From the IMG/VR virus record IMGVR_UViG_3300025093_000012, positions 32,001 through 96,000 of that record: a DNA stretch of 64,000 bases; one strand, given 5' to 3'. Shown here piece by piece: positions 30,763 to 48,800 of this stretch. This DNA is from a virus. Under the pieces are notes generated by a model, which did not search any database, was not told the DNA's origin, and saw only the letters and a list, made by a program, of their open reading frames with translations. Made by a program: the position numbers and the translations under genes. The stretch's first letter is position 1, and each line of letters begins with the position of its first letter.

Positions 30763-33700
30763 CTATTTACCCATTGGCAAGAAAAAATCTCTTAATTCTG
30801 CTCCTTTTCTAAGGATTCTCATTTCTCTTCCCATCTTACCTTGATATCCTGCATTTGTAATTACATCTTGCTGCTGTCTACCAAATGTAGTTGGTGCAGT
30901 TTGATTAGGCATTTTAAATACAGGCCACTGATCCTGTGGTACACCTGCAGCATCTAGCTTTTCTGTAATAGCAACATACTGATCAACTGCATCTTGTGGA
31001 TCTTTATAATTAGGATCTGCATAAAATGCTTTAGGATCTGTAATATTAATTATACCTCCTGACGCTGGATCAATATCAAACTGAGGATATATACTATTTA
31101 GATTTGCTGTATTAGCTCTATTAGTATATGCATTCTGAAGCTGTGCAGTAATAGCTGCATTTGCTTTTCTCATTGCATTATCATAGTTCTCATCAGTTAG
31201 TACAGTGTTATCATATAACTGTTTCTTTTCGTTATTATTAAGAAGTTGAGTTTTATACTCTAGCTCTGCATTTTTAACACCTATAGTATTAGCTAGTTGT
31301 ACATTATCATTTTGAACTTTATTTATTGTATCAGCAATAGCTGTATTAGCTTTACCTTGTGCTGCTAGTGCAGCAGACATAGCTCTACCAGAACCAGATC
31401 CAAATGCTTTAGCTACTTCTGCAGCTGTAGCTGCTTGCTCACCTATAGCTGCAATCTCTCTTGTAGGATCTTTAAATACTCCGTCAATTTGTGGTTGGTC
31501 ATAAAATGGAGCCCAAGGATAACGTTTTTGCAAACTCAGTTTAGCATCTCTTGCGTTAGCTAAACCTAGTTCATCTTGTAACCAAAATGGAGTATCTTTT
31601 TTCTCACCTACTTTTTCTTGAACATCAATTTCCTTATCACACTCACAACCAGATGCAGGTGTAGTTACATTTCCTTCAGCATCTTTTACAGCTGCAGTAT
31701 AAGGTGTCCAAGTTCCTCCAGCTTCAGTACATGCTGCTTGCATCTCTTCTGCATTTGCACAAGGCACAGCATCCACGGCTTCTGTAGTTTCTACAGTACC
31801 CATCAACTCTCTGTTAGTGGTATTACCCCAAAAACCATCATCTCCTGAAACCATTCCATCAAATAGTTTATCATCGGCAACACCAGTATTAAAGTACTCT
31901 TGAGTTTTATCATCTCCTGCTTCAACATACTTACCAGCAATAAAACCTGCTTGAGCATGACTAATCATATCCTTATCTAATGGAGTAAAGCCTTGCTCTT
32001 CTGCAGCTTGGTTATATCTCCAGTTAGCTCCTTTATTCTCTCCCTTCTTGTAGTACTTTCCGTCTTTTGCTTTTGTACAACCATCACCTGGACCATCACA
32101 TGGAATCATTTCAAATGTTCTATCCCAATCTGGTAAACTCAAGTATTCTTGATCATACTCTTCATTAAACTTTCTATTCTGAGTTTGGAACTCTACAGTA
32201 ACATCTACAAATTCTTCTAATGGTAAAACATCTTTACCCTGCTCTTCTCTATATTTTTTGTAGAATTCATACATCTTCTTTTGATAGTCTTCATCTACTT
32301 TAAAGTTTTCTATCCAATCTTCTTTACCACTTGTAGTATATGTGGTTGTAGACTCTTGAGCCTCAGTGTCTACTCTTGATTCATTTATATCATCTAACCT
32401 TTTTCGTTCTGCTTCTGTTATTGATCCACTCATTATCTCTTGAAAGAATTGAGGATTCTTTCTTTTGATTCTTCTTAAATCTTTTGCACTATATTCTACA
32501 CCATCATAAACAACCCCCATAGATTCTTTCCCTCTTTGAGCAACAGGTAATCCAGGTTGACCACCATTTAAAAATGACCATTGTGATCCTACATAATATG
32601 GGCTGTCAGGACTAACATAATCTAAAGGCACACCTTGTGTTCTAACTCTATTATTCATAGCCATTTGATCTGACTCATCATCATTAGGTAATCTAAAGTT
32701 TCTTGGATCTACATAACCCGTTGGATTACTTTCATTAGGATTTTCTTGAATGTTATATACATTAGTAATTTGTGGTACATTTGATGATCTATTTGATCCA
32801 GTATTTGTTTCATAATCTGGAATTGCATCTTCACCATAAATATTCTTATATGCTTGAGTATAACTTGGATCATAGTCACTTGGTGCAGTTCCACCTTCAT
32901 TTATATGATTTTCCCAAAACTCAACCATTTCAGGATTAGCTGCACCTGATGCACCTAACATACCCATTTGATCTTCTGGAGAAGGGATCATAGAAGTCAT
33001 CATAGTATTATAACCATCAATCATATTAGTCATAACATTATTATAGTCATCTAACATCATACTCTGATCTGCAATATATTGTTCTAATAACTGTTCTCTT
33101 GAAGGTTGAGTAGGATAATTTAATGTACCTGCTACAACAGGTTCTGGCTCCATTGGCATAACAACTGCTGTATTATCTGTTTCTGCAACATACTCTGGAA
33201 TATAATATTGTGCACCTAAATAACCAGCTGTTCTAGTTATACCTTTTTGTGCTTTAGGTAGTTCTCTACCATACATAGCAAGTAATTTTTCATCTATGCT
33301 TGCCTCTTCTGTATTTACAGGACTATCAATCATAGTATTGCTTGGTTCACCTTTAATAGTATCTTTAACACCACTTTTAACACCTGTTTTAAATGTATGT
33401 GCTAAGGTCTTATTTGCTAATGGTTCTGCTATAGTTTTTGCAGCAGTTTTGTATCCTGCTTTTATTAGGTTACCCCCTGGGGTTGCTCCTAATATTGCAG
33501 ATGTACCAGCAGTAGCAAGTTCCTTTTTCATAGTATCATAGTCACCATCTTTATATGCCATATAAGCATCACCTGCATCAATAGCTGCACTACCTAGACT
33601 TGCAGCTGTACCAAGAACAGGTACATATGAAGCTTTGTCTAATACATTTTGAATATCATCTTTATTCTCCATGTATGTTTCAGTAGTTGATTTTCCTTTA

Positions 33701-35391
33701 TAGTCAGGAATAAATCCTTGTTCTCCTTTAAGGTAACCTGCAAAATCAAAACCAAACTGAGCTTTCTTCATTCCTTGCATTTCATCCTCATGCAAGTAGC
33801 CCATTTCTTTCATACGTAAATGATCTTCATATGTCTCAGCCATATAACCTTTTCCAGTTTCTGGATCATACATCATATGTGGCTCAAAAGATTCTTCTCC
33901 ACCCTCTTCTCTTCTATTAAGATACCCTAGATTAATATCAAAGTTTCTTTGAAGTTTTCTACCAAACTTGGTGTTATCTAGCAATGCATTAAGACCATAG
34001 TTAATTAAGCCTCCTTTTATTCCATCTTTTAATCCTTGCTTTAAACCAGTACCTAAATCTTGTCTATATTGCTCTTTAGTTTTTCCACCCACTTGACCCA
34101 TATAGTAATCAGGACTCATACCAAAATACTCTCCAGCAAAAAAGTCTTGTTTATTTGGAGTAAAGTTTTCAAACTGTGGGCATGTATTATTCTCACAATA
34201 GTCTACATAACTTGTATAACCACCCGCATTACCAGGTCTAGCAAACATTGCATCCATGTTAGTATTATACAATTCCCATGCATCATTTTTTCTGTTATAC
34301 TGAGTAATCATTTGAGGAACTGTTCTTGCCAAAATACTACCAAGTGCAGTTGTACCTGCTACTTTTAAAGATTGATTTAAGTTAGACTTACCTCTGTTAG
34401 AACCCATGTATCCAAACTGTGCTTTTGGTAACAGATTAGATAACTGACCTCCACGTTTAGCCATAGCAGGTTGTTGCATAGAAGGCTGCATAGAAGTCAT
34501 CATATTAGGTTGCATGTTTGGCTGCATGTTAGGTTGTTGCATAGCCATCATCTCCTGTCCAGGAGCTGGTGCAGGCATACCTGATTGAGAAGGAGGAAGA
34601 ACCTGAGCTTGTTCAAGCTGAGCTTGTTCTTGTTCTCTACGTTGTTGCTCTTCCATCATTTTTTGTGCAGTAAGTATTTGCATTCTGCTTTCAAAAGGAA
34701 GTTGTACTAACATCTTCAACTCTGCTTCTTTTCTAGAAATATTTTCTACTTGTTGTGAGAACTGAATAGGATCAATATTCTTTTCTGTTAAATATGGATA
34801 TGCAGCTAATGGTACACCATCTTCAAACTCTTTCTTTGCTTCTTGAAGAAATGCTAGTTGAGATAAAGACCTTTTATTTTTACCCAACATATACTCTGCA
34901 GTATCTCTTGTAATAAAATCAGACTGCTCATCATCTAATAAACCAATAAAATTATTAAGTTGATATTTTTTAGATATTTCTGCTGGTGTTAATTTCTTTC
35001 TTGATTCTAACCCCATCTCTGCAAGTTCATACTTACTAAACTTCATTGCAGATGTGTCAGAATAAATAAATGATTGAGGTGGTAAATTTAATGGCGTACC
35101 CCCTTGATGATGTCTTTTACCTTGAATATCATATAACTCAAAGTTACCATCATTATTAAGATCAGTGAGGACGGTTTCACCTTTCTCAGCTTCTAGATTA
35201 GCTTCTTCCCTAGGAACAGGATTAATAGAATAATTTACTTTAGATGTAGGATCAGGACTAGAAAATGGATCTAAGTGAGGATATGTCACTAATCCATAAT
35301 TAGATTGATCACCTGTAGTACCACCGTCCTGGTACACTTTACCTTCTCTTATAGAAAAGCCTTTTGGTAATTTTTTAATTTTTACTTTCAT
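30763..35391 (-). CDS. modular virion cargo protein with GG/LPKAQxG linkers
   Basis: 1542 aa; N-terminal EAEKGE...GKRHHQGG domain; MQPN repeats; several LPKAQxG linkers. Confidence 0.7.
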   Translation of the reverse strand: MKVKIKKLPKGFSIREGKVYQDGGTTGDQSNYGLVTYPHLDPFSSPDPTSKVNYSINPVPREEANLEAEKGETVLTDLNNDGNFELYDIQGKRHHQGGTPLNLPPQSFIYSDTSAMKFSKYELAEMGLESRKKLTPAEISKKYQLNNFIGLLDDEQSDFITRDTAEYMLGKNKRSLSQLAFLQEAKKEFEDGVPLAAYPYLTEKNIDPIQFSQQVENISRKEAELKMLVQLPFESRMQILTAQKMMEEQQRREQEQAQLEQAQVLPPSQSGMPAPAPGQEMMAMQQPNMQPNMQPNMMTSMQPSMQQPAMAKRGGQLSNLLPKAQFGYMGSNRGKSNLNQSLKVAGTTALGSILARTVPQMITQYNRKNDAWELYNTNMDAMFARPGNAGGYTSYVDYCENNTCPQFENFTPNKQDFFAGEYFGMSPDYYMGQVGGKTKEQYRQDLGTGLKQGLKDGIKGGLINYGLNALLDNTKFGRKLQRNFDINLGYLNRREEGGEESFEPHMMYDPETGKGYMAETYEDHLRMKEMGYLHEDEMQGMKKAQFGFDFAGYLKGEQGFIPDYKGKSTTETYMENKDDIQNVLDKASYVPVLGTAASLGSAAIDAGDAYMAYKDGDYDTMKKELATAGTSAILGATPGGNLIKAGYKTAAKTIAEPLANKTLAHTFKTGVKSGVKDTIKGEPSNTMIDSPVNTEEASIDEKLLAMYGRELPKAQKGITRTAGYLGAQYYIPEYVAETDNTAVVMPMEPEPVVAGTLNYPTQPSREQLLEQYIADQSMMLDDYNNVMTNMIDGYNTMMTSMIPSPEDQMGMLGASGAANPEMVEFWENHINEGGTAPSDYDPSYTQAYKNIYGEDAIPDYETNTGSNRSSNVPQITNVYNIQENPNESNPTGYVDPRNFRLPNDDESDQMAMNNRVRTQGVPLDYVSPDSPYYVGSQWSFLNGGQPGLPVAQRGKESMGVVYDGVEYSAKDLRRIKRKNPQFFQEIMSGSITEAERKRLDDINESRVDTEAQESTTTYTTSGKEDWIENFKVDEDYQKKMYEFYKKYREEQGKDVLPLEEFVDVTVEFQTQNRKFNEEYDQEYLSLPDWDRTFEMIPCDGPGDGCTKAKDGKYYKKGENKGANWRYNQAAEEQGFTPLDKDMISHAQAGFIAGKYVEAGDDKTQEYFNTGVADDKLFDGMVSGDDGFWGNTTNRELMGTVETTEAVDAVPCANAEEMQAACTEAGGTWTPYTAAVKDAEGNVTTPASGCECDKEIDVQEKVGEKKDTPFWLQDELGLANARDAKLSLQKRYPWAPFYDQPQIDGVFKDPTREIAAIGEQAATAAEVAKAFGSGSGRAMSAALAAQGKANTAIADTINKVQNDNVQLANTIGVKNAELEYKTQLLNNNEKKQLYDNTVLTDENYDNAMRKANAAITAQLQNAYTNRANTANLNSIYPQFDIDPASGGIINITDPKAFYADPNYKDPQDAVDQYVAITEKLDAAGVPQDQWPVFKMPNQTAPTTFGRQQQDVITNAGYQGKMGREMRILRKGAELRDFFLPMGK
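34460..34545 (-). repeat. degenerate 12-nt coding tandem repeat (MQPN/MQPS)
   Basis: Encodes MQQPNMQPNMQPNMMTSMQPSMQQPAM. Confidence 0.7.
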
Positions 35392-35393
35392 AA

Positions 35394-38300
35394 TTATACT
35401 ATTTGTATCTCTGCTCCTGCAGCTACTAGTTGTTTATATGTATTCATATCTATTTCTATCTCTCCACCTGGTTTATAAAAACCTCCTCCAAATTGAGCTG
35501 ATTGAGTTGTACCAACAACAACCTTATCATCTGGTCTAAATATACCAGAGTTAGGATCATAGTTACCTTTGTTTCCCGTTATATCAGCATCAGTTGCAGC
35601 AAACATATTATCAGCTAAAAATGCATTATTCATTATATTAGCTCTTTGCCTATTCTCATTAAATTGTCTAGCTATTCTAGTAACAGGTTTTGCCACATCA
35701 ATTAGCATATCACTTACCTTGGTATATGTTTGAACTGGTTTACTATCAGCTACTCTTAACATAGTGTTATATGCTCTAGTTCCAAAACCAGGTCTTTCAC
35801 TAGAAGCATCTATTAAATCAGCTCTATCAGATCTCATCTGAGCTTCTTCTGCCTCTGCAGCATCATAAGCATCCATAGCTGCAAGATCACCATCAAAACC
35901 TAATTCCATAGATCTATCATATCTATCTAAGTTTTCTTGTGTACCTGTATATTCAGGCATTGAATCAACTTGACTTTGTAAGTTAGCTGATGTTTCATCT
36001 ACCACATCTTGCATTTGTTCTGATGACATAAGAACTTGCCCATCAGATGTAACCCTACCTTGTCCCTCAGCTATAGTATAGTCCATCATATCTTTTGCTT
36101 GAAGAAACTCTTCACTAGGTTCAAAAGAAACATTAGGTGTCTGAAGCGGATTAGTATTTACTTGATTCATCATTAATGATGGATTCTCTAATCTTTTATT
36201 CATATCAGCAGTAAATGCTTGGAACTCATCTAATGATCTATTAACAGATTGATTCATTGCATACAACCTAGCATTTGACATAGGTGTATATGTGTCATCT
36301 GTTGATTGGCTAAACAATACATTTTGATTTAAGAAGCCAGCTGGATTATTTAATGTAGGACCTGATGTAAAGAAAGGTGTAGATTGATTTCCTGATAAAC
36401 TATACCCAGAGAATGTTGGTTGTAAAGTACCTTGTGTAGGAGCACCAAATTCACCTAATGATTGATACTTTGTTAAACTGCCACCCATCTTTTTTGATGT
36501 ATCACCTTGTTTTTCTGCTTCATCATATGCTGCGTCTAGTTTAGCTTTATATGCTTTGTAACCAGGAGTTACATCAGGCAAGCTTTCTACAAAATCTGAA
36601 TAAGATTTAGTATCACGAACATTAGTATTATCATGTCTGTATCCATACTTTGTACCTAATCCCATACCATAAAAAACTATTTCATGATCTTTTTCAGCAT
36701 CTACATTAACCCTTCTAAATACACCAGAGTTTAAAGTTTTATCACGGTCAGGATTGTCATGAAAATATTTTAAAGGATACCACCAGTCACGGTCCATTCT
36801 TATTTTACCTGCATCAACTAATGCTCCATCCTTATCATGAACTCTAAAATAATTAGCTTCTGGATCAAAAGACTCACTTAATAAATCATTTTCAGCCCTT
36901 ACCATATCTACAGTAGGACGTTTCATTTTAGGCATTGGTCCATCATACAATGGTGGTGCTATAGGTACAGCATTTGTTGTGAATACATCATACACGTTTC
37001 CAGTTACATCAGGTGTAGCTGCTACTGCATCAGTATATTCATAGGCATCAAGCGCAATACCAGGTGTACCATAAGCAGTATTATAAACTATTGTAGAATC
37101 ACTAAGCATAGGAGTAATAGTTCTAGCAAAACCAGGCGGTCTTGTAAGACTAAATCCTACACTAACAGGATCATTTTCCAAAGCTGTTCTGTTATTGTTA
37201 ATAAAAGTCTGTGCAGCTCCAGCTGTAACACCACCTGGAAAAAACATCCATCCTGCCCCAGGTGTTCCTGCTGATCCTTCTTCTAAAACTACTTGCCTAT
37301 TTCTCATTGATTGATTATAATCATTGATAGTAGGTCTGTCCCTAAATGTTTCTCTAGTTGTTACAAACTTATTTGTATTAGGATTATATAAATCTTCAAT
37401 AGTTACACCTTTTATACCTGGCACATCAATCATTTCTACCTCACCTCTGTTCTGATAATAAGGTAATGAGCCACCATATCTTGCTAAATCATTTGGCATT
37501 GGTGGAAGATCCTCTTGTCCTGGTTCATAATCCATCTCACTGTTTGTAGGAGTTATAACAGGAACTGGAACAGGATTTAATTGTGGTTGTGGTATATTAG
37601 TTGGAATAGGTTGAACTGATCTTGATGGAATCTGCACAGGTTGATTCATAGGATTCTTCATACTTCTTTGCCACTCAGGTGAATCATCTACACCAGTTGG
37701 ACGTGAACCTTTATCAAAGTCCTTATCTACAAATATACCATCCACACCATCTAACTGAACATTACCAGGTCCTGTAACAAGATAATCATAAGGCACAGAA
37801 GAACCATCAGGTCTTTGTGTGTAACCTAAATATTCTGCATCTGAATATTTTTGTTCTAATAAATCTCCTTGCCCTGGACCTTTTCTGCCAAATGTTTCAC
37901 CTCTACCTGTTAGATTAAAAAGATCCATATCAAAATCTTTAACCTTCCCATACATATCTGGTCTGTTCTGTCTTCTTGCCTCAAGGAAGTTCATCATCTC
38001 CTCCTCTTGCACTTGTTCCTCATCTTTCAGATATTTACCAGGATTATATCCCATTCTGAAGTAGTCTTCCTTGTCATAGTATAGATCTTCACCAGTTGGG
38101 TTTCTAACAGTAAACTTCATGTAATCTGACTTAGTGCCAGGATCATAATAGTTTTCACCTTTAAAACTCTTTACCCCTCTCCCAATAGCATCTGCTAATT
38201 CTAAAAATGGATTATCCCCTAAACCAGAAAGTATAGTTGCTTGATCAGGATTCCTAAATTTATTATTAAAAGCATCTATTTTTTGATTTGCATCATCTTC

Positions 38301-38747
38301 ATCTTCAGCCTCTTCTGTAATATCTGTAACATCTGTATCTTCTGTCTCTTCTTCAGAATCAAATTTTGCATTAAATTCTTCTTCACTTTCACCTTCTGAT
38401 CTAGTTGTATATACTTTACCATTCCAAGTAAAAGTTTTTTCACCTGCACTTTTAGCTGAGCTAAAGGCTTGACTAAATGATAAACCTGTTGCAGGATCAA
38501 CACCACTTTGATTATCATCCTTACCTAGGGTATTCCAATTGCCCTCCATATCTACAACAGCAGTTTGTGATACACCATTTGCATCAGTCCACATTGCTAT
38601 ACCATTCTCTATGACGGCATTATCTGGAACACCATTACCATCAGAATCAGTTAAGTCAACTTCACTAGATCCTTCATCACCTTGAAATATAGGTAATGAA
38701 CCACCTAGCTTTGCTAACATTAAATATGGATTGTTGTAAAAAAACAT
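35394..38747 (-). CDS. modular, acidic virion cargo protein with GGSLPxxQ linkers
   Basis: 1117 aa; AKLGGSLPIFQG, ARYGGSLPYYQ, KKMGGSLTKYQ, AQFGG. Confidence 0.7.
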   Translation of the reverse strand: MFFYNNPYLMLAKLGGSLPIFQGDEGSSEVDLTDSDGNGVPDNAVIENGIAMWTDANGVSQTAVVDMEGNWNTLGKDDNQSGVDPATGLSFSQAFSSAKSAGEKTFTWNGKVYTTRSEGESEEEFNAKFDSEEETEDTDVTDITEEAEDEDDANQKIDAFNNKFRNPDQATILSGLGDNPFLELADAIGRGVKSFKGENYYDPGTKSDYMKFTVRNPTGEDLYYDKEDYFRMGYNPGKYLKDEEQVQEEEMMNFLEARRQNRPDMYGKVKDFDMDLFNLTGRGETFGRKGPGQGDLLEQKYSDAEYLGYTQRPDGSSVPYDYLVTGPGNVQLDGVDGIFVDKDFDKGSRPTGVDDSPEWQRSMKNPMNQPVQIPSRSVQPIPTNIPQPQLNPVPVPVITPTNSEMDYEPGQEDLPPMPNDLARYGGSLPYYQNRGEVEMIDVPGIKGVTIEDLYNPNTNKFVTTRETFRDRPTINDYNQSMRNRQVVLEEGSAGTPGAGWMFFPGGVTAGAAQTFINNNRTALENDPVSVGFSLTRPPGFARTITPMLSDSTIVYNTAYGTPGIALDAYEYTDAVAATPDVTGNVYDVFTTNAVPIAPPLYDGPMPKMKRPTVDMVRAENDLLSESFDPEANYFRVHDKDGALVDAGKIRMDRDWWYPLKYFHDNPDRDKTLNSGVFRRVNVDAEKDHEIVFYGMGLGTKYGYRHDNTNVRDTKSYSDFVESLPDVTPGYKAYKAKLDAAYDEAEKQGDTSKKMGGSLTKYQSLGEFGAPTQGTLQPTFSGYSLSGNQSTPFFTSGPTLNNPAGFLNQNVLFSQSTDDTYTPMSNARLYAMNQSVNRSLDEFQAFTADMNKRLENPSLMMNQVNTNPLQTPNVSFEPSEEFLQAKDMMDYTIAEGQGRVTSDGQVLMSSEQMQDVVDETSANLQSQVDSMPEYTGTQENLDRYDRSMELGFDGDLAAMDAYDAAEAEEAQMRSDRADLIDASSERPGFGTRAYNTMLRVADSKPVQTYTKVSDMLIDVAKPVTRIARQFNENRQRANIMNNAFLADNMFAATDADITGNKGNYDPNSGIFRPDDKVVVGTTQSAQFGGGFYKPGGEIEIDMNTYKQLVAAGAEIQIV

Positions 38748-38766
38748 ATAGTTACAGTTTACTTTA

Positions 38767-38780
38767 ATAATATACTAAAT
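38767..38780 (-). promoter_or_regulatory. promoter motif variant ATTTAGTATATTAT
   Basis: Intergenic; shares the GTATATTAT core. Confidence 0.55.
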
Positions 38781-38794
38781 TATCAGCAGATATA

Positions 38795-41700
38795 CTAATT
38801 ATTAGGTGGAGTATTCATTCGGTTCATAACATCTAAAGCATTCATTTTAGTACCCTTGTAATCATTATAGTACATTCTATTAATCTTATCATATAATTTT
38901 TTAGCAGATTTAGATTGTTGAGTATTATCATAAACACCACGTACATAGTCATTGTAAAATTGAATTTGATTTTGTAATCCAAATTCACCACCATAAGAAA
39001 ACATAATAGGACGTAACATAGTTTTAGCAGATCTAGCCATCATATTTGTAAAAGTATCCCACGCCTCTTCAGTATTATCTTGAAATATCTCCCAATTAGA
39101 TTTAGGCTCTTCTTTAGTAACAACTTTTTCATCCATGTTGTCAATGTTAGTTTCACTTAAAGTGACAATAGGTATATGGTTATTAACAAACCTTGCATAA
39201 TTGTCTGCTTTCTTACCAGGCCTCCAAGTTTTGGCTAATGAAGTATAAACATCAAAGTCTTCACTATTTTTATCTTCTCTACTAATTTGTGTTTGGTATC
39301 TATTACCTAATATTAATGCTGTAGCTATTGCAGATTTTTCTGGATCCATTAACTCACTATTATTAATATCAAATTGATGATATTGAGATATTGTATTTTC
39401 CCCATCATTATAAGAAAAGACTCTACCTTTAAAATCATTTGCTTCAGCTATTTTATACTCGTCAGGAGAAAGTAAATCTATTTCAGCTTGAGATAATTTA
39501 GTTTCTATTGGTGTTGTAAAATTAGTTTCAAATCTCTTATCTGCCTCAGCAAGAAGTTCTCGTTCTCTTGGATCTGTATTACCATCAGCAACTCTTAACT
39601 GTGTCCACCCTACACTGCGGTAAGGCTCCTTTCCCTTTCCTGATATGTTATCATACTTTCTTTCTACAGAACCTGAACTTCCTTTACCAGTTACCGCTTT
39701 CCTTATTAATCTACTATAATCTGAAACCCAATTATTTCTGTCTCCCATACCACTTTCATAACCATATATACCAAATGCAGTAAGTGCTATATCATTATAT
39801 AAATCACCATCTATATTTAGTATTTCCATCATGTCCTTTTTATTAGTAGCTAGTGCATTTAAAAAAGGTTTTGTAATTTCATTATATTCTTCAAGTCTAT
39901 TACCTGCTGTTCCATCTATATAACCACTCTCCTCAGCAATGTCATTGTTATATTCAAACATTATAGGTTTGTAATTATATAAATTATTTATAGATGTATT
40001 TATACCTTGACCACCTTCTATCTCACCAATAACTTCTCCTTTAGAATTCAACTGATCATATGATGTTTCAGCTTTCTCAATATTTTCTTTAGATGCATAC
40101 AAATTAAGTTTCCCATTTTCATACACAAAGGCATTATCTTTATCTTCAGGTAAGACATACATCATAGTACCCACACCTACATCTGGGTTATCATATAATT
40201 CTTGTAAGTCAGTACATTTTCCATTAATACATCCGTTTGTTAATCTATTGTTGGTTCCGTCATTATCATATAGGTTACTAACTCTACCTCTTGTAACTCC
40301 ATGAAATGCCATAGATTGACTAATACCATCTTCATTTTCAAAAGTGAATGAAGGAACATCTGCTCTAGTATCAGCTCCGTATGCTCTACCACCATCAGCT
40401 TTTGCAGAAGATATAGTATATACCCCAGCTCCAGTTTGTTTATTACCACTCTTCCAGTCTACCTTAGTTCTATATCCTGGAACTTTTATAAGCTCATCAA
40501 TGGTACTAACACCATTATCTTTCATAGCTTCATTAAGCTCATCCTGAGATAATTGTTTTCCTTTATAGTATACTGCTACTTTAGTTACTGTAGCAGCATC
40601 TCCTGTTGCTTGACCAGTTAATACATCATATGATTGTCTTGGAGTTTCTTCACCTGGATAAAGAAGATGTATCTTACCTTTCTTTTCATCTAAAATTAAA
40701 TACGCATTAGATGCTGTTCTATTAATAGTAAGTTTCTGCCCTACTCTTAGATTGTTTTGATTTTGTCTAGATATACCATTATCAGCCATAAGTCTCCCTA
40801 GACTAACTCCTTCTTTCTCAGCAATTTTTGTAAGATTGTCTCCTGCTTTTACTGTATATACTTTTTCTACTTTCTCTTCATCTACACCATACTCATCATT
40901 CATACCCTGAACAATAGTTTGAAATTGATCTAACTTATTTATTTCTTGTATATTATTCTTTTTACCAGAAACACTACGCCATACACCATTTTCATCTTGT
41001 TCTCTTTTTACCCATACTTCATTAACAGGAGTTGTATCATTTACAACAACTTCATCTATTGTAGTTATAGGTGATACTGCAGCAGCTTCTTGACTTTTAG
41101 TACTTTCAGTTTCTTCATATTGAGAATGTTGAGGAATAATCAATTTTTGATTAACTAGTATTAAAGATGGATTAGTAATATTATTTAACTCAGCAATCTC
41201 TGCAACAGACACTTTATATCTATTAGCTATTGCACTAAGTGACTCACCTCTTTTAACTCTGTGTTTTAATACAGGATTGTTTGACTCAGCAATATCTTTA
41301 CTATTAACGTCAAAAAATACTTGTTCTCCTGGACGGATCATACCTTCTCTTCCTCTAAATGTAGGATTCAGATCTACAAGTTCTTTTAATGTAAGACCAT
41401 TGTCTCTAGCAATTCTACCTAATGTATCTCCTGATTTAATAGTGTATGAACCACCAACTCTCATTATAACAGGTTCAATTAGTCCACGTTCCTCTAATTC
41501 CTTTTTAGCAATAGGAGATATTACACCACCCCTGTTATACAAATCAAGTTGTTGCTTGAGTCTATTCATCTTTCTCATAAACTCACCACCACTCTTTTTA
41601 TCTTCTAATACTCCTTTTCTAAATGTTTCAATATATTCATCTGGAGTCTTATTAGAATACTCTGCGTTCTCACCATACAATTTTGGGAATACAGTTTCTA

Positions 41701-44700
41701 ATGATTTACCATCTCTAATGTGGTAACCAATATATTCTCTTGCTCCTTGTCTACCTAAAAAGTTAGATAATGCAGCAATGTCTAACATTGACATTCCATG
41801 ATCAACATCTTTGTACTCATTATACACCTCTTCTCCAGCAAGTAACAATCCTGGAATACCTTCTAATTCACCATAAGCTCTTTTTCTAAATAGATCTTTT
41901 TGAAAGTCAGTGTCTTCTGCAAACTCTGCTCTTGTGCCATCATACTGATCTTTTACCTCACTCCATAACTGACCATATAAACCAGTTGCAGATGATTCAG
42001 GATTTAACATTAACACACCATTCAAACTTTCTGTGTGTCTTATACCACGCTCTAAGTCATCAAAACTTACTGTCTCTTCTCCTTCTTGTGCAGATCTCAA
42101 ACTGCCTCCACGTTTTTTATTAGTCCAAGATTCTTGGAATACATACTCTTTAAGTGGAATAGCTCTTACAGAATGTGCATCATGTTCTAATGCTCCTTCA
42201 GTCTTATATGTTGCACCTTGATCTCCTGCATGTGAAATAAGATCTTTTACATAATTTACTGAAAAAGGAAGTCTTCCCATTTCACGTAACTGTTGTGAGT
42301 GAGATAATTCCTCAAGTAAAATATCCATTAAAGCATAGGGTCCACCTTCCATGTAGTCTTCTGTAATAAATATATTACCTCCAGATGAAGCATCAGTCAT
42401 AGGATTGACATGAGGAGCAACTCTTGACTCTTGTCCTGTTAGTCCTGCAGCCACATCCGTAACTTCTTGAAAGCTTGGTGAAAATCCTCCTAAAAATCCA
42501 GGTTCATAATCTGCACCTATATTAAGATTAGGTTGTCCTAGTTGATTCCAAACATCTATAAATCTATCATAAGTACCTTGGTCATATTGATAATCAATAC
42601 CTTGTTCAAGTAAACCTAATACTCTATTTGTATTTGCATCTTCAGTTTGACCATAGTAATCAGTAGTGTATCTTGTACCATCATAAACAAAACTTTGACC
42701 TGGTCCAAGATCTTTTCTTGCTTTTCCAAATGCATCATCTTTATTAGATGCTTTACTTGTATAATCTTTTGGAGCAGAAATAGCATCAAATTCTCCTGAA
42801 AGAAATCCACCAACAGCTGATGCAGCATCTTCATAACCTGCACCTCTTGTGTAGTTATATGGATTTGCATATGTTGATGCTAACTTACCTATATCATCAT
42901 AACCTGTAGCCTCTTCTAATTTATTACTTAAATATTTATTTACATCAGAATTTACAAATGCATCTTTAGCTCTATTATATAAAAAAGTCAAACCAAATCC
43001 TGTCTGTGCTTTAGGTAAATCACCACCTTCCTGATAATACTTATTCATTATATTAATAAAGTTCTGTGGATCTTTAAGATTTAAATACTTACGCATACCA
43101 GATAAATCACCAGCTGTTTCAAAATGCTTTAATGTATATGGGTCAGATGGTTTAAGACCAAGTCTTAATCTTTCTTCCATCATTCTAGCTTTAATCTCAG
43201 TTGGTTGTGTATAATAACCAAAATCATACCTACCACTCTTTCCAGATTTACTAGATGATTTTAATAAATCTGTATTTACTAGTCCTTTTAAATCAGATCT
43301 TTGTTGTCTGCTTAATCTCCCACTTCCTGCATCCATAAAATGTGACCACTCATGAATATTTGTACCTTGTGTATTTCCAAAACTGCCAACTCTGTTGGTA
43401 TAAAATTTATTTCCAAAGTTTCTTCCAGCTGCAGGATGAAAATAAATACCTCCTGTATTAAGACTTTTATCTAAATAATTTTTGGTTGCATCAAATCTTC
43501 CTTTTAAAGTTCTTGGATAATCGGCAAACATATCTTTACCTAATTGTAAGTATGTATTAGAAAATTTATTACCTGGTGCATTAGCAGCAATATCATCTAT
43601 GCTTGGAAATTTAATATCTGGATACCTACCTAATACTTGTATACCATCATCTCTTACTGGTCTAGTAATCTTTAGTATATCATCATAACTTTGTCTATAG
43701 TTAATCTTATCATGTATAGTAGGTACATAACCTGATTCTAATGGATTACCTTTTGTAAACATAAAACCAGCAGGTCTATTCTGATTTAAACCTATTCTTA
43801 AATTACCTTGATTAAAGTCTCTTGCTAAACGTACCTGTTCAGTATTTACATATTTTTGATAAGCTGGATCATTTATATAATTCTCTACATATTTAAATGT
43901 TCCTTGATCAGTATTTGGTACACCTGATTTTATTTTTGAACGCTTTATTGCAAGATCAACATCTTTTATAATATTCTTTCCTGCTGTTTTTCCTGTTTGA
44001 ACAATAGGCTTTCCTGCCTGTACACCTGCTGGAATAAAAGGTACTGCACCTAATGCATTAAATGCTGCATCAACATACTCTCCTTGTTTTAAATCATCTA
44101 CAGCAGCATCACCATAACCAAGAAATGCAAATGGATTTAACACATCAAATGCATAATCATATGGGTTTCTATTTGGTACATCCATAGGAATTCTATCTGG
44201 AAGGTCCTGCCCTCTTACTAAATATCCTAATGTTGTCATTGGATTTGCTAAATAGCTCATCCCTTTTTCTATTATGGATGGTTCTTCATAAGGTCTTATT
44301 TCTCCCTGATCTGGAGGTAAAGGAACTCCTTCCTCTTCTTGAAGTTGAATATTTGTATCTATTATAGGTGGCATTGCCACTCTTGTATTATCTGAAGGAG
44401 CAACATATGGTTCAATACCTAATTGTGCCATAGGCAATGATCCACCTTTTTGATTCTTTGGTAATACTAAATACTCAGGACGGTGTGGTTCTCTTCCAAA
44501 CAACCAGTTGTAATACTCAGCATCATATAACTTTTTTGTATGTTCTGAAGGTATATAACCGCCATCATCTTGCCAAGTGCCTCCTTGAAATCCATCTACA
44601 TTATGATAGACAGATTGATTGCTAAATGTAGGATGATTAGGTTTCTTCCATTTATCACTACCATGATTATCCTCATCCATTTTTTCAAAGTCACCAGACT

Positions 44701-45802
44701 TCCAAAAACCTTGTATATCATAAGCACCCATGTCCATCATGATATCTCTACCCTGTCTTGCAGATTCAGACTTAACCCATTCTGTAAACTGTGTTAGCTC
44801 ATCTTCTGTTAGATCAGTATTATACTTATCACGAAACATCATCTCAGGATCAAAATCACCACCCGCTTGAGCCATAAATAATTCACTCTGTTGAGAATCA
44901 TCCATAGCAATATTATTTAATAACCAAATAAGATCATCTTCTGAGTAGTTTTTTAAAAGTCTATTTTTAAGATAACTACTCTTAGATTTTCTTAATGTTT
45001 CTTTATCTATATCCTCTGTACCTGCATCATAAAGACCTTGTTGAAATAATTCAAACCTAAGAGCATTTAAATCTGATTTATTTTCATCAGGCTCTGTGTC
45101 ATGACGTGTTTGTCCTTCATAGGTTTGTAGTCTAGAAACTAATTCATCTATATCATATTGATTTAATCTATCTCCAGTTTTTCTATTAGGTTTAAAATTT
45201 TGTAATTCAGCATGCCCATATTCATGAGCTATTATAGAACTTCCATCACCATAACCATATTTTTCTGCATCGTCTGAATTATAAATTATAAGGTCATCAG
45301 ATGGTGAATACATAGAACCATATGCACTATAAGGTTCACCTTTATACATTTTTATTAATTGGTCAATAAATCCTGGTGTTCCGCGTTGAACCATATAACC
45401 AGTATCAGCTACTTGACTTGCTCTTAAATCTCTCTCATCCTCTGGAAAATTATAACCAGATGACTGCAACCTTTCTAAATATTTAGGTGAGTTTATATAA
45501 TTAAGAGTAAAATCTTTTGCATCACTATTTTGAAATACTCTATTTGGATCTTGTGGTTCTAAAGCATCAAATAATTCTCCATAAAAACCTCCACCTCTCT
45601 GAACCAACGGAACTTCAAAAACAGAACTACCAGGAAATGTATAGTTAGCACCTGGCATCATAACTCTGCTGTTACCTAAATTATCCATACCAAACACAGG
45701 AAAGTCTACATCTTTCATAGTTATATTACCTGATGGTATTATATTATAAGGATTATTCTTATCCTTACTTGTTCTCTTATATCCGTCTTTACTGTACTTC
45801 AT
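38795..45802 (-). CDS. multi-enzyme modular virion protein: 3 zincin-like, lytic transglycosylase-like, 3 LysM, L,D-transpeptidase (YkuD)-like and a second lysozyme-like domain
   Basis: HEYGH (45212-45226), HEWSH (43340-43354), EELSH; HTES...SATGLYGQ; YTIKSGDTLGRIA, HRVKRGESLSAIA, YTVKAGDNLTKIA; MAFHG...TNGCIN; YESGMG...SVGWTQ. Confidence 0.8.
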   Translation of the reverse strand: MKYSKDGYKRTSKDKNNPYNIIPSGNITMKDVDFPVFGMDNLGNSRVMMPGANYTFPGSSVFEVPLVQRGGGFYGELFDALEPQDPNRVFQNSDAKDFTLNYINSPKYLERLQSSGYNFPEDERDLRASQVADTGYMVQRGTPGFIDQLIKMYKGEPYSAYGSMYSPSDDLIIYNSDDAEKYGYGDGSSIIAHEYGHAELQNFKPNRKTGDRLNQYDIDELVSRLQTYEGQTRHDTEPDENKSDLNALRFELFQQGLYDAGTEDIDKETLRKSKSSYLKNRLLKNYSEDDLIWLLNNIAMDDSQQSELFMAQAGGDFDPEMMFRDKYNTDLTEDELTQFTEWVKSESARQGRDIMMDMGAYDIQGFWKSGDFEKMDEDNHGSDKWKKPNHPTFSNQSVYHNVDGFQGGTWQDDGGYIPSEHTKKLYDAEYYNWLFGREPHRPEYLVLPKNQKGGSLPMAQLGIEPYVAPSDNTRVAMPPIIDTNIQLQEEEGVPLPPDQGEIRPYEEPSIIEKGMSYLANPMTTLGYLVRGQDLPDRIPMDVPNRNPYDYAFDVLNPFAFLGYGDAAVDDLKQGEYVDAAFNALGAVPFIPAGVQAGKPIVQTGKTAGKNIIKDVDLAIKRSKIKSGVPNTDQGTFKYVENYINDPAYQKYVNTEQVRLARDFNQGNLRIGLNQNRPAGFMFTKGNPLESGYVPTIHDKINYRQSYDDILKITRPVRDDGIQVLGRYPDIKFPSIDDIAANAPGNKFSNTYLQLGKDMFADYPRTLKGRFDATKNYLDKSLNTGGIYFHPAAGRNFGNKFYTNRVGSFGNTQGTNIHEWSHFMDAGSGRLSRQQRSDLKGLVNTDLLKSSSKSGKSGRYDFGYYTQPTEIKARMMEERLRLGLKPSDPYTLKHFETAGDLSGMRKYLNLKDPQNFINIMNKYYQEGGDLPKAQTGFGLTFLYNRAKDAFVNSDVNKYLSNKLEEATGYDDIGKLASTYANPYNYTRGAGYEDAASAVGGFLSGEFDAISAPKDYTSKASNKDDAFGKARKDLGPGQSFVYDGTRYTTDYYGQTEDANTNRVLGLLEQGIDYQYDQGTYDRFIDVWNQLGQPNLNIGADYEPGFLGGFSPSFQEVTDVAAGLTGQESRVAPHVNPMTDASSGGNIFITEDYMEGGPYALMDILLEELSHSQQLREMGRLPFSVNYVKDLISHAGDQGATYKTEGALEHDAHSVRAIPLKEYVFQESWTNKKRGGSLRSAQEGEETVSFDDLERGIRHTESLNGVLMLNPESSATGLYGQLWSEVKDQYDGTRAEFAEDTDFQKDLFRKRAYGELEGIPGLLLAGEEVYNEYKDVDHGMSMLDIAALSNFLGRQGAREYIGYHIRDGKSLETVFPKLYGENAEYSNKTPDEYIETFRKGVLEDKKSGGEFMRKMNRLKQQLDLYNRGGVISPIAKKELEERGLIEPVIMRVGGSYTIKSGDTLGRIARDNGLTLKELVDLNPTFRGREGMIRPGEQVFFDVNSKDIAESNNPVLKHRVKRGESLSAIANRYKVSVAEIAELNNITNPSLILVNQKLIIPQHSQYEETESTKSQEAAAVSPITTIDEVVVNDTTPVNEVWVKREQDENGVWRSVSGKKNNIQEINKLDQFQTIVQGMNDEYGVDEEKVEKVYTVKAGDNLTKIAEKEGVSLGRLMADNGISRQNQNNLRVGQKLTINRTASNAYLILDEKKGKIHLLYPGEETPRQSYDVLTGQATGDAATVTKVAVYYKGKQLSQDELNEAMKDNGVSTIDELIKVPGYRTKVDWKSGNKQTGAGVYTISSAKADGGRAYGADTRADVPSFTFENEDGISQSMAFHGVTRGRVSNLYDNDGTNNRLTNGCINGKCTDLQELYDNPDVGVGTMMYVLPEDKDNAFVYENGKLNLYASKENIEKAETSYDQLNSKGEVIGEIEGGQGINTSINNLYNYKPIMFEYNNDIAEESGYIDGTAGNRLEEYNEITKPFLNALATNKKDMMEILNIDGDLYNDIALTAFGIYGYESGMGDRNNWVSDYSRLIRKAVTGKGSSGSVERKYDNISGKGKEPYRSVGWTQLRVADGNTDPRERELLAEADKRFETNFTTPIETKLSQAEIDLLSPDEYKIAEANDFKGRVFSYNDGENTISQYHQFDINNSELMDPEKSAIATALILGNRYQTQISREDKNSEDFDVYTSLAKTWRPGKKADNYARFVNNHIPIVTLSETNIDNMDEKVVTKEEPKSNWEIFQDNTEEAWDTFTNMMARSAKTMLRPIMFSYGGEFGLQNQIQFYNDYVRGVYDNTQQSKSAKKLYDKINRMYYNDYKGTKMNALDVMNRMNTPPNN

Positions 45803-48800
45803 TACCTAAATGATACGTTTATTTTACTATTGTTTAGTTTCAATATCATCTTTCTATTTCCTGAAACTCTCTTTCTTAATACAACTGCATTCCAGTAGTG
45901 TCTAAACTTCTTACGTTGGAAGAATGGTTTGTTTAGATCTATGTTAGCTAAGTTTAAATCTCTAATGTATCCGTTAAGTTGAGTTATAAATATTGGCTCA
46001 CTAACATTAGGATCAAACTCACCTCTATTATTAGTTACATCCCAGAATTGATTGAATCTATATTTCTGCTCTTCCTTACTATATAGTATTTGAATATCAT
46101 TAGGTGTAATCTGTGGATACTGAGTAATTAACGGAGCATTGTTTTTAGGTGATAAATTTAATGCTAATAATCCTGATACTTGCTCTGTGTTATGTAGAAT
46201 TGCTTCATCAAAATTATAATCTAAATCATGGAATCTATCACCACAATCATTATCTAGATTACCTCTATATATGTATGACTCTAATTGATACTCTATACTT
46301 CTTACTGTATTAACTGTTTGTCCAACAGATTCAATTAGCTCTACCTCCCATGGATAATCTTCTGTATAGTAGTTTGTATATAAGTCACATCTATCGTTAT
46401 GTTTCCAGATACCACCTCTCTCATTAATAGAAGGGATACAGCATAAATAATCAAATTGACACATTGTAGGGTCAGGATTAACAAATGCTGGATTACCAAT
46501 ACCTGTATCTTCATTATAATATTCTGCTATACCATTTGGTATATCATCAGGACATGTTCCCAATTGTTGTAAACTTCCAGGTACATATGAATCTGGTAAA
46601 CTGTTTTCTATATCACAATCACATTCTATCTTTCTACATATACCATTTTTACGGTCACCTAATTGTTCATTACAATCTAATGGATCAGTTAAAATTTCAT
46701 ATGGTGAATCTATTGATATTCTTTCATAACCTTCAGGACATGTGCATGTAATAGTAGCACATATATTATCAGCTAACTCAGCTGAAAATGGTGTGATTTC
46801 AAGAGGTGTTAAATCTAATCTTTGGAAATTAGTATTATTATTAGTTATTATATCAAACTGAGCAGCAGGTGCAGTATTAGTAGGATGACAAAATATACCC
46901 CATGACTCACTATTAATTTCTGCTATTCCTTGATTAAATGCATCTATGTTCGGTAATCCAAATACAACATTAGGTAAATCTGTTGGAAAAGAACTTCCTT
47001 GAAACTGTGAATAGTATGCTGCTCCTGCAGCATTAGGATTATCCCCTGCAGCACCATCAGCAAGTTGAATATGTATCCTTCTATACAATGGGTTTGCTGT
47101 TCTATCACCTAATGTAGAATTTGTAACATCAGATAATTGTTGTTGACCATTATCAAATGCTTCATAAAAGTCAGTACCTTGAGTAGATGAAGTCATTGCA
47201 TCTGTTCCCCAGTTTGTACTACCTGTATAGTGTGACATTGAGATACTATTGGTATTATAGTTCCCCGACATATCTGGTGTAACATTTGAATATGAAGTTC
47301 CCCATTGATTAAGACCTATCTGTGCATTACCTGAATTCATCTCTGGTGCAAATTCTGCAACAAACTCATCTACAAACTGCTGAAATGAATTAAAGAAACT
47401 GCTAGTTGATCCTGAGCGGTCAACACTAATTACTATATCTACAAGACACTCTGCTTGATCTGATACAGGAACTGGTAGTTCTTCATCAACAATCACATTA
47501 CCAGGAACTTCAGTTGTCCCTTGTTGACAACATTCATTAGTTACGGGATCATAAGTAAATCCAGGAGGACAAGATGGTATTTCATCTAACTCAATATTCT
47601 TTGTTGTAAAGAAATGATTTAAGCTAGGTATTGTTAAATCAGGATGCCAGTCATGGAATGAAATCCATGCTTTAGCTTTTGGATCATAACTTACCGTCCA
47701 AGAAACATCTTTAAAGTATTGCTCATCATCAATGCTAATAGGTATAGTATTATCTATAAATTCTCCAGGTATAACTTCTGTATATATACAAGTTGATGTA
47801 CCAATAGTATCATTAGCATCTGGGCATAAACCAGTTACTGTTGGAACAAAACCATTAGAATCAGGAGGACATTCACAATCATATGTAGTAGTATCTCTTC
47901 TACAAACTGGACAATCTTCCGTCCCTCCATCTGTACCATCCGTATATTCTGTATATCCTTCATCACATCTAAACCCTGTTGTTCCATTCTCACGTAAGAA
48001 GTCATTAACATCAGATGACCATAGTTTTGGTAAGCTTGCCCATGATGTTGCACTTTGAATATCTAACCAATTATCTACATCAATTACAGCAGCAGCTAAA
48101 GCTCCAGGTGTTCCCTGTTGATTCAAACCTGTCATTCTAAATCTAGTACATCCTTGCTGCAACTCATATCTGTATATCCAAGCTTTTGAATATTGTGATG
48201 CATTAGCTGCATCTCCTGCAAGCCAAGCAAAGTTTCCTCCAGCACCTGTTTGACCAGACCAAATGCCAGCTAATCCAACACCAAATAGTGTATTATCATT
48301 TGGTTGAACAACTGTTGACCAAACACCACCAATATTTTCTTCAAATAAAAATCCATTATCAGCAGCTAATAGTATATGTACAGTTTTAGGTACAGGCACA
48401 TTAACCTGAAACTCAGCTACTGCAAAATTATTTGGTTCATTACCTGACCCTCTCATTAATGCATTTACTATACCATTTGTATTATTAGCTGGAGTATTTC
48501 TCCACCAAGTATTAGATCCGTTATCTGTTATGTAATGCCATGTATTTGGATCTGCTTGATTACTAGGCATTCCATCAATTGCTACATCATCAATAACAAT
48601 TGGCCAGTCTCTACCATATCTACTATTACCATAAGAAGCTAATCCAGCACTTGTACCCACACCAATTGCAGCACCATACTCATAAGTTGTAGTGCTAGTT
48701 AAAATAGGTTCTAGTTCATACTCACCTTTACATAATACTTCTCCTGTTACTGGATTAACATTTGTTTCATATCCATCTGGACAACATGCTATTGGATCTG

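Follow-up and report, generated by a model that had tools for sequence, protein, structure and literature searches.

Crassviruses are among the most abundant phages of the gut and are common in the sea, and the structure of one of them, crAss001, raises the open question of how the phage takes up some 5 MDa of cargo protein and then pushes it through the tail. Here, we analyse a 64,000-nucleotide stretch of viral DNA (positions 32,001 to 96,000 of the IMG/VR record IMGVR_UViG_3300025093_000012; hereafter "the window", whose numbering is used below) and, in particular, three adjacent genes, P1, P2 and P3, whose products of 2335, 1117 and 1542 amino acids (aa) are composed of cassettes joined by a short recurrent peptide, the junction. 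The window lies within a phage genome of 112,837 bp with 96 open reading frames (ORFs) and 35.7 thousand residues (kaa), in which the late operon is crAss-like and on the minus strand: TerL, the portal and the major capsid protein (MCP), recognised through PHROG, are followed by tail genes, by a muzzle-like protein, by P1, P2 and P3 and, finally, by proteins of 1140, 5029 and 1883 aa. Since P1–P3 stand between the muzzle gene and the giants associated with the RNA polymerase (RNAP), they occupy the place of the cargo proteins C1 and C2 of crAss001 (PMC10172136) and, by this analogy, are probably cargo (ejection) proteins of a marine crAss-like phage, carried in the particle and injected. This phage being uncultured, the only support for their presence in the virion comes from positional counterparts verified by mass spectrometry (MS) in Cellulophaga phage phi4:1 and in crAss001 (PMC10172136).

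An earlier reading of the same DNA (the original prediction) had quoted linker peptides from these three genes, and both the peptides and the coordinates were verified, all on the minus strand. Two syntenic 120-kb relatives from IMG/VR, L001 and L002, keep the order muzzle-P1-P2-P3-P4, with P1 of 2042 and 1736 aa, P2 of 1345 and 1406 aa and P3 of 1842 and 1784 aa, respectively; in both, the motif is found in P1–P3 only and is absent from the muzzle and from P4.

Architecture of the three proteins and position of their junctions

P1 (38795..45802, minus strand, as are all the features described below) unites several unrelated domains in one polypeptide: a zincin-like HExxH fold, three LysM, a YkuD-like region and a confidently predicted cassette of novel fold. 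It opens with a conserved N-module of 70 aa, which is closed by VPLVQRGGG (residues 64–72; 45587..45613) in a stretch, 67–90, where the predicted local distance difference test (pLDDT) is low. The zincin-like cassette c2 follows (residues 91–299, with HEYGH at 193) and is separated from the next cassette, c3 (320–449), by FMAQAGGD (residues 309–316; 44855..44878; pLDDT below 57). At the first full junction, NQKGGSLPMAQLG (residues 450–462; 44417..44455), pLDDT drops from 84–98 to 41. Further cassettes, including one with a second zincin motif, HEWSH, at residue 817, are accompanied by the full junctions YYQEGGDLPKAQTG (residues 922–935; 42998..43039), which is a doubled unit, and KKRGGSLRSAQEG (residues 1229–1241; 42080..42118), just after which homology to P1 of L001 begins. 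Ahead of the LysM block, KKSGGE, YNRGGV and MRVGGS (residues 1402–1452; 41447..41599) stand close together, with predicted helical pieces of 20 aa between them. The three LysM (about 1450–1700) and a weak YkuD match (1785–1876) lead to FSYGGE (residues 2268–2273; 38984..39001), which precedes a conserved P1-type C-tail (...KxNRxYY..., from residue 2268).

Pfam detected in P1 the three LysM and the weak YkuD and no family in P2 or P3, a search of 14 individual cassettes being likewise unproductive; sequence searches of the PDB returned LysM only, and GenBank phages, searched with P1, P2 and P4 by megablast and tblastn, gave nothing useful. By Foldseek, the best matches of c2 are all zinc metalloproteases (Zmp1, probability 0.99, E 2e-3; ECE-1, PepO and neprilysin), and HExxH is near-invariant in the alignment of this cassette. 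The same search with c3 (44456–44845; DPEMMF...PNHPTF...YY.xGG) found no PDB match, although the cassette folds confidently in prediction; c3 is also among the most widespread cassettes, and in many of the 150 top-ranked hits, out of the 3390 matching protein clusters described below, it is the part that matches best.

P2 (35394..38747) carries an N-terminal tag, AKLGGSLPIFQG (residues 12–23; 38679..38714), a middle that varies and a C-terminal part that is conserved and closes with the tail GGEIEID...AAGAEIQIV (in relatives, GGEIEID...AAGA.I.I). Its full junctions are ARYGGSLPYYQNRG (residues 422–435; 37443..37484) and KKMGGSLTKYQSLG (residues 752–765; 36453..36494), where homology to P2 of both L001 and L002 begins, and a doubled unit, SAQFGGGFYKPGGE (residues 1083–1096; 35460..35501), stands ahead of the conserved tail. 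In P3 (30763..35391), a conserved N-domain (1–246) and a C-domain (about 1269–1450) frame a middle of variable cassettes, one of them common to P2 of L002. KVYQDGGT (residues 18–25; 35317..35340) closes a basic N-terminal mini-module of 24 aa (MKVKIKKLPKGF...); the junction AKRGGQLSNLLPKAQFG (residues 311–327; 34411..34461) is followed by a cassette homologous to residues 495–674 of P2 of L002; MYGRELPKAQKG (residues 706–717; 33241..33276) is a YGxE variant present in several relatives; and LNGGQPGLPVAQRG (residues 941–954; 32530..32571) closes a cassette common to P3 of L002. The remaining site, MKKAQFG (residues 541–547; 33751..33771), lies right behind a mini-domain, F.PHMMYDP.TGKGY.AE...DHLRMK.MGY.HE (residues 500–545; 33757–33894), that is 49% identical in a hypothetical protein of 462 aa (L003:5158-6546) of the Methylophilales myophages Melnitz (Kyanoviridae). 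Melnitz shares this mini-domain alone, without the junction motif, and it looks like a small module travelling between unrelated marine phages.

A peptide confined to three proteins and to one clade

The original prediction had seen no full linker in the tail proteins or the RNAP, and a test on all 96 ORFs with 200 shuffles bore this out for the tail proteins and the RNAP-associated giants. GG[SD]L..[AFY]Q was observed six times against 0 expected, LP.AQ.G five times against 0.015 and L[PRT].[AFY]Q.{0,2}G nine times against 0.39, with every site of the three patterns falling in P1–P3. Neither the full nor the half motif occurs in the other 30.7 kaa, which include the muzzle, the proteins of 1140, 5029 and 1883 aa, the head genes, the capsid and the portal. 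GG by itself shows no enrichment (38 observed against 36.5 expected), whereas GG in context does: [AFYV]Q.GG occurs five times against 0.4 expected, and never in the remaining 30.7 kaa, and [FYAML][KRQ].GG nine times against 1.5. Therefore, for most of the weak xxGG sites that had also been proposed, it is the context alone that makes them real. Homology confirms four, namely VPLVQRGG, at the end of the 70-aa N-module, which is conserved in 33 loci; FMAQAGG, at the end of the zincin cassette, where the homologues have the consensus ...AQxG; QKGG, at the end of c3; and FSYGG-E, at the start of the conserved C-tail. KKSGGE, NRGG and MRVGGS are matches to the pattern only.

Beyond this phage, a degenerate DNA pattern for GG.LPKAQ.G matched at least 119 loci and at least 142 sites in IMG/VR. 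Among the matches listed, the median open frame is 1087 aa, and 133 of the 142 sites lie in frames of at least 400 aa. The same pattern run on 596 Gb of bacterial genomes gave about the number of matches expected by chance (~139); 92 sites were in the peptide frame, in random taxa and in open frames with a median of 160 aa, and only about five of the matches looked phage-like. Mimicry of a host protein motif, in its exact form, was rejected on this ground, the bacterial matches being at chance level and mostly in short frames. Other genes are shared with this phage by 92 of the 119 viral loci listed and, among the rest, four of five tested contigs encode its portal (three at 59–71% identity, one at ~30%); nearly all the motif loci fall in a single marine crAss-like clade. 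The full motif was not found to have spread beyond crAss phages, since the seemingly unrelated contigs encode the same portal and Flavobacterium phage Fpv1 is without the motif; crAss001 and phi4:1 also lack its full form.

Some relatives differ from this phage in their complement of motif-bearing genes. Many of them (L066, L070, L047, L056, L042, L031, L053) have an extra giant motif-bearing ORF of 1200–2200 aa among small genes upstream of the terminase and portal, in some cases beginning with MSRKLKNKSKKILPKAQSG; no giant gene is found here at the corresponding place (110.8–112.8 kb and 0.1–1 kb of the genome). In relatives (L081:5495-5965, L105:8920-9390), the late operon has at its distal end a gene for a protein of 157 aa, in which a full tag stands 23 aa after the N-terminus and KKGG, followed by 13 aa, is found at the C-terminus. 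From this layout it looks like a single-cassette tagged protein, and no counterpart was seen in this genome.

The junction as a linear peptide

The logo of 122 unique contexts reads [FYK]-[KQR]-[YED]-G-G-[SQE]-L-P-K-A-Q-x-G, and the flanking positions carry next to no information. The possibility that the motif is part of a conserved domain was rejected, no flanks being conserved in the 122 contexts. Synonymous codon use at the eight fixed positions equals the background of the same ORFs, so selection acts on the peptide and not on nucleotide identity, and a linker for recombination at the DNA level was rejected because the synonymous codons at all eight positions match that background.

A more general unit, φ-[QK]-x-G-G, underlies this peptide. 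In the 150 best homologues it occurs 295 times against 46 expected, with a hydrophobic residue two positions past GG, and the units pair up, 44 spacings being of 12 aa or less against 12.4 expected; the 13-mer of the clade is, therefore, a doublet made of the end of one cassette and of an xLPKAQxG mini-unit. Position within the protein also follows rules. Of 192 relaxed sites in 116 ORFs, six stand 12–27 aa from the first Met, and some of these lack GG (MSRKLKNKSKKILPKAQSG; P2 here begins alike); no site stands within 60 aa of the stop, while GG plus a tail of 5–17 aa ends 57 of the 150 homologues (for example GGWLDKYN or GGSVKRVKIKSLPKNWKTQ at the stop). The terminal modules, that is the N-module and C-tail of P1 and the C-tail of P2, stay conserved.

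Small proteins of 256–281 aa (L091:3529-4296, L113:2784-3551, L121:5623-6465) lie near the terminase-proximal genes of relatives, in a region that in this phage carries endolysin-like genes. They have an N-terminal CxxC, a hydrophobic transmembrane-like stretch and a basic tail resembling a coiled coil; their GG units number four to five and include the triple tandem KKMQAGG-TAKKIQAGG-TLPKAQNGG.

One explanation of such repeated units is that they are read by the host after ejection, binding a periplasmic or envelope component of a Flavobacteriia-type host as a ratchet or an anchor, in the manner of the Tol and Ton boxes of colicins. The units are indeed repeated and disordered, many motif-bearing proteins contain cell-wall modules (LysM, YkuD-like), and units occur also on these small transmembrane-like proteins near the lysis genes of relatives. 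However, no host partner is indicated, and the exact motif is not enriched in bacterial genomes; moreover, the related sites of crAss001 adjoin segments docked to parts of the virion and not of the host (PMC10172136). We consider this explanation very improbable.

Disordered joints and the exchange of cassettes

That the linkers fall in disordered gaps between folded domains, which the original prediction had named as a point to check, agrees with AlphaFold2 models run with alignments of homologues for the two pairs of junctions that flank c2 and c3. In c3 (320–449) the block-mean pLDDT is 84–98, falling to 41 at 450–459 (QKGGSLPMAQ) and to 46–57 at 300–319 (FMAQAGG); in c2 (91–299) it is 81–97, with values below 50 at 67–90 (VQRGGG...) and at 300–316. 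In these models, the junctions lie in disordered linkers beside confidently folded cassettes.

The joints are also the places where cassettes are exchanged. Among the three phages, BLAST blocks begin at LPKAQxG (...PKAQFG) and stop at the next xxGG (...GYL.R..GGE), as in residues 451–614 of P1, matching 174–341 of P1 of L001, and in residues 753 to the end of P2, matching L001 from 971 and L002 from 1053 to their ends. Residues 262–499 of P3 match 430–674 of P2 of L002 and, therefore, this cassette moved between genes. A phmmer search with residues 1–1200 of P1 against 1.84 billion representatives gave 3390 protein-cluster hits, in which the cassettes 1–70, 91–317, 316–457, 498–620 and 928–1200 are each matched separately and stand at any position, in proteins of 160–3000 aa. 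In 56 proteins, c3 always ends in ...PSPLYY[KQ]xGG, after which unrelated sequence follows, and it usually comes after ...[AMFY]QxGG. The blocks and the phmmer homologues together uphold the original view of cassettes joined by a common linker, and the difference in cassettes among relatives that it had suggested looking for is seen as well, content differing among L001, L002 and the phmmer homologues with breakpoints at the linker. The junction peptide would also explain the extreme modular turnover of the cargo proteins, in which more than 3000 protein clusters share individual cassettes.

Exchange of this kind might be thought to need nothing more than a passive flexible hinge without a specific partner, which became a common end-piece of cassettes since similar ends recombine in frame; shared descent, together with selection for an inert, protease-resistant, unfoldable spacer, would then account for its conservation. 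The homology blocks that stop at the motif, the movement of cassettes among genes and positions, the low confidence of the linkers and the presence of Gly-Gly and Pro, typical linker residues, all fit such a hinge. However, eight positions hardly vary among 122 contexts that are otherwise unrelated, inert spacers would not as a rule have an invariant L, P, K, A and Q, the synonymous codons show no extra conservation at the nucleotide level that would favour recombination, and small single-cassette proteins are tagged at their N-terminus, where a joint is needless. For these reasons, a merely passive hinge appears improbable.

Cleavage or an uncut joint

The junction could instead be a site for a protease that cuts after Gly-Gly or Gln, making P1–P3 polyproteins that yield many virion-internal or injected effectors; the original prediction had counted about 20 of these. 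The enzyme might come from the phage (for example, the zincin of the RNAP-associated giant) or from the host, acting in the procapsid or after ejection, and the leaders and tails would be removed as targeting peptides. Gly-Gly|X is the type of site recognised by adenain and by the pS273R protease of African swine fever virus, and short motifs mark the places where the head proteases of T4 and phiKZ cut many head proteins. The junctions sit in disordered linkers precisely between folded cassettes, these cassettes include enzymes able to act in different compartments, and the neighbouring protein of 5029 aa contains a conserved HExxH zincin. Processing is also what the literature expects of the RNAP polyproteins of crAss phages and of polyvalent proteins: the fused RNAP polyproteins have been described as "likely cleaved" (Drobysheva et al., bioRxiv 10.1101/2020.03.07.982082), zincin-mediated processing has been proposed for polyvalent proteins (Iyer et al., 2017, PMC5512222), and DdrB and DarA of phage P1 are, in the published view, processed ahead of packaging.

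Several observations stand against cutting. No head-maturation protease was found by PHROG in the head module: what the scan recognised in its ten largest ORFs and in the tail genes tested was TerL, portal, MCP and structural proteins, and no protease, two ORFs of 432 and 357 aa being without a match. No clan CE or Gly-Gly-specific peptidase appeared in the Pfam and PHROG scans of the giants, the cassettes and the head module, about 60 small ORFs being unscanned, and the sole peptidase match there, Peptidase_C39_2, has an E-value of 0.61, which is noise. The motif is missing from the capsid, the portal and the other virion proteins and from the fused 5029-aa giant, which would be most in need of cutting. 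The zincin cassettes of the cargo proteins are optional, HExxH being present in P1 here and absent from P1–P3 of L001 and L002, which retain the motif; a role of the P1 zincin cassettes as a conserved processing enzyme was rejected on this basis. Triple tandems, units 9–30 aa apart, tags 9–27 aa from N-termini and GG with C-tails of 5–17 aa would give pointless tiny products, the N-terminal copies retain LPKAQxG and may be without GG, and a motif of 13 residues is longer than typical protease sites. Finally, virion gels of crAss001 show bands of ~150, 270 and >300 kDa, and gp47, gp49 and gp50 were identified (PMC6235969); this points to giant cargo proteins that are unprocessed in the crAss001 virion, and the vRNAP of N4 is likewise packaged unprocessed (PMC6235969, PMC5512222). 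The notion of a protease site releasing some 20 effectors is thus left unsupported, and we regard cleavage as a real but unlikely explanation; the other half of the original interpretation, a packaging signal, is plausible.

The reading that we favour, with a probability of roughly 0.45, is that the junction is a docking and handling tag that joins the cassettes and is not cut, which several of the above observations fit better than they fit a cut site. The cargo proteins would be strings of independently folding cassettes framed by conserved N- and C-terminal "anchor" modules, and each joint would be a short disordered peptide of one or two φ-[Q/K]-x-G-G units, here usually the doublet [FY]-[KQ]-x-G-G-x-L-P-K-A-Q-x-G. 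Staying uncut in the virion, it would serve both as a flexible Gly-Gly hinge and as a peptide read by a conserved virion component, the candidates being the portal, the lumen of the tail barrel or of the muzzle, and the inner surface of the capsid or scaffold. In this way, any cassette between two tags could enter the particle and leave it later by threading, one module at a time. Since the joints are all alike, recombination could exchange cassettes, whether inside one of the three genes or from one to another, and leave loading and ejection unaffected.

Some considerations weigh against a docking tag. No binding partner can be named and no structure of a bound LPKAQ peptide exists; the support from crAss001 is by analogy, its gp45 and gp46 having no detectable homology to P1–P3 and no LPKAQ, and the crAss001 gels leave open whether gp45 itself is intact. 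A strongly conserved, disordered peptide exactly between folded enzyme modules also resembles a protease site, and the leaders and tails beyond the terminal tags could be removable targeting peptides, as in the internal proteins of T4. Moreover, the virion data do not address cutting after ejection, whether by a host protease or by the 5029-aa protein with its conserved HEAFH zincin, and the protease scans covered the giants, the head module and those tail genes that were tested, not the whole proteome.

Neighbouring genes

The muzzle-like tail protein of 2555 aa (45802..53469), directly upstream of P1 and without the junction motif, matches virion structural families of PHROG and gp44 of crAss001 (E 5e-5), as well as muzzle-like proteins of Cellulophaga phi4:1 (26% identity) and of Flavobacterium Fpv phages. 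On the other side of the cargo genes, the RNAP-associated giant of 5029 aa (12177..27266), also without the motif, matches through residues 2159–2372 (20151–20792) the residues 2090–2293 of crAss001 gp47 (E 7e-11), that is, the zincin-bearing C-terminal part of this RNAP-associated cargo protein; the conserved zincin motif HEAFH (YHEAFHAVF) is at residue 2235. This ORF appears to be a fusion of RNAP-associated modules that are separate genes in crAss001, and no junction motif was found at its candidate fusion points.

In the last giant, of 1883 aa, residues 661–760 (9898–10197) show a weak similarity to the portal-bound domain of crAss001 gp45 (residues 437–543), with 25% identity over 108 aa and E 0.002 in a small database. 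If this similarity is real, the portal-docking module would sit in this last giant and not in P1–P3. In the head module, the two ORFs without a PHROG match, of 432 aa between the portal and MCP (L245:4142-5440; genome 100142–101440) and of 357 aa after MCP (L245:886-1959; genome 96886–97959), are where a cryptic protease, an internal capsid protein or a scaffold would most obviously be sought.

Comparison with known systems

Modular injected polyvalent proteins and the cargo proteins of crassviruses are already known, while a shared junction peptide is, as far as we found, undescribed: no published account was found, and a full-text search returned "LPKAQ" in no phage paper. New here are also the control on bacterial genomes, the codon test, the two structure-based tests of linker position and the grammar of units, doublets and terminal copies, together with the optional nature of the zincin cassettes and the A[FY]GG sites that lie beside the resolved segments of crAss001 gp45.

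Encapsulins offer a distant parallel. Their cargo-loading peptides, short and rich in Gly, Ser and Leu, dock cargo inside an HK97-fold shell. By analogy only, a disordered core of small residues and Leu on flexible linkers could address arbitrary cargo inside an HK97-fold container; the encapsulin tags, however, are usually single and terminal and have no sequence relationship to the junction. The processed head proteins of T4-like and phiKZ-like phages (gp21 or gp175 type, with the capsid-targeting sequences of T4) share with P1–P3 a recurrent short motif in packaged proteins and short terminal peptides ahead of the first motif. Unlike in these phages, no head protease was found here, the motif is missing from the capsid, the portal and the proteins in scaffold position, and copies are in tandem or very close.

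Polyvalent proteins (Iyer, Burroughs, Anand, de Souza and Aravind, 2017, PMC5512222) are likewise giant multi-domain proteins encoded in late or virion gene blocks and thought to be delivered with the DNA, and they combine, as here, zincin-like peptidase and peptidoglycan-targeting domains in a combinatorial make-up. A shared junction peptide is not described for them, the words "linker" and "crAss" being absent from the text of PMC5512222. Their anti-restriction hallmarks (ArdC, methylases, ParB-like) were not seen here, and the model of their processing relies on zincin domains in cis, which in this clade are optional.

Two other phages have positional counterparts of P1–P3. In Cellulophaga phage phi4:1 (L123, KC821632), a 146-kb phage of a different genus, the MS-verified structural proteins gp040 and gp041 come directly after the muzzle-like gene, as P1 does, and together contain six [AFY]Q.GG units, without the LPKAQ half. 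The gp45 (C1) and gp46 of crAss001 (Bayfield et al., 2023, PMC10172136; PDB 7QOG, 7QOI, 7QOJ, 7QOL, 8CKB) resemble P1–P3 in genome position and in having a basic N-terminus followed by a GG site. They are smaller (842 and 534 aa, compared with 2335, 1117 and 1542 aa), no enzyme cassettes have been described for them, they too are without the LPKAQ half, and BLASTP of both against P1–P3 and relatives gave only chance-level matches (E ≥ 0.002). Nonetheless, gp45 carries A[FY]GG at residues 207, 330, 425 and 560 (four against 0.088 expected), and its ordered pieces are 214–245, bound to the tail barrel, and 425–552, bound to the portal (PMC10172136): the site at 207 just precedes the first piece, and the second starts at the site at 425 and ends before that at 560.

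It is conceivable, although we would not yet bet on it, that Gly-Gly units form a general "cargo code" of crassviruses, in which the peptide suffices for loading a module into the capsid or tail and for its injection. The LPKAQ doublet would then be the dialect of the marine clade and A[FY]GG that of the gut phage crAss001; such a code, if true, would explain the fast turnover of the injected arsenal and would offer a transferable tag by which foreign proteins could be packaged into crass-like virions. A clade-wide junction peptide at the borders of cargo modules, with a cousin bracketing the only cargo segments resolved by cryo-electron microscopy, in any case gives the question of cargo loading a handle that can be mutated.

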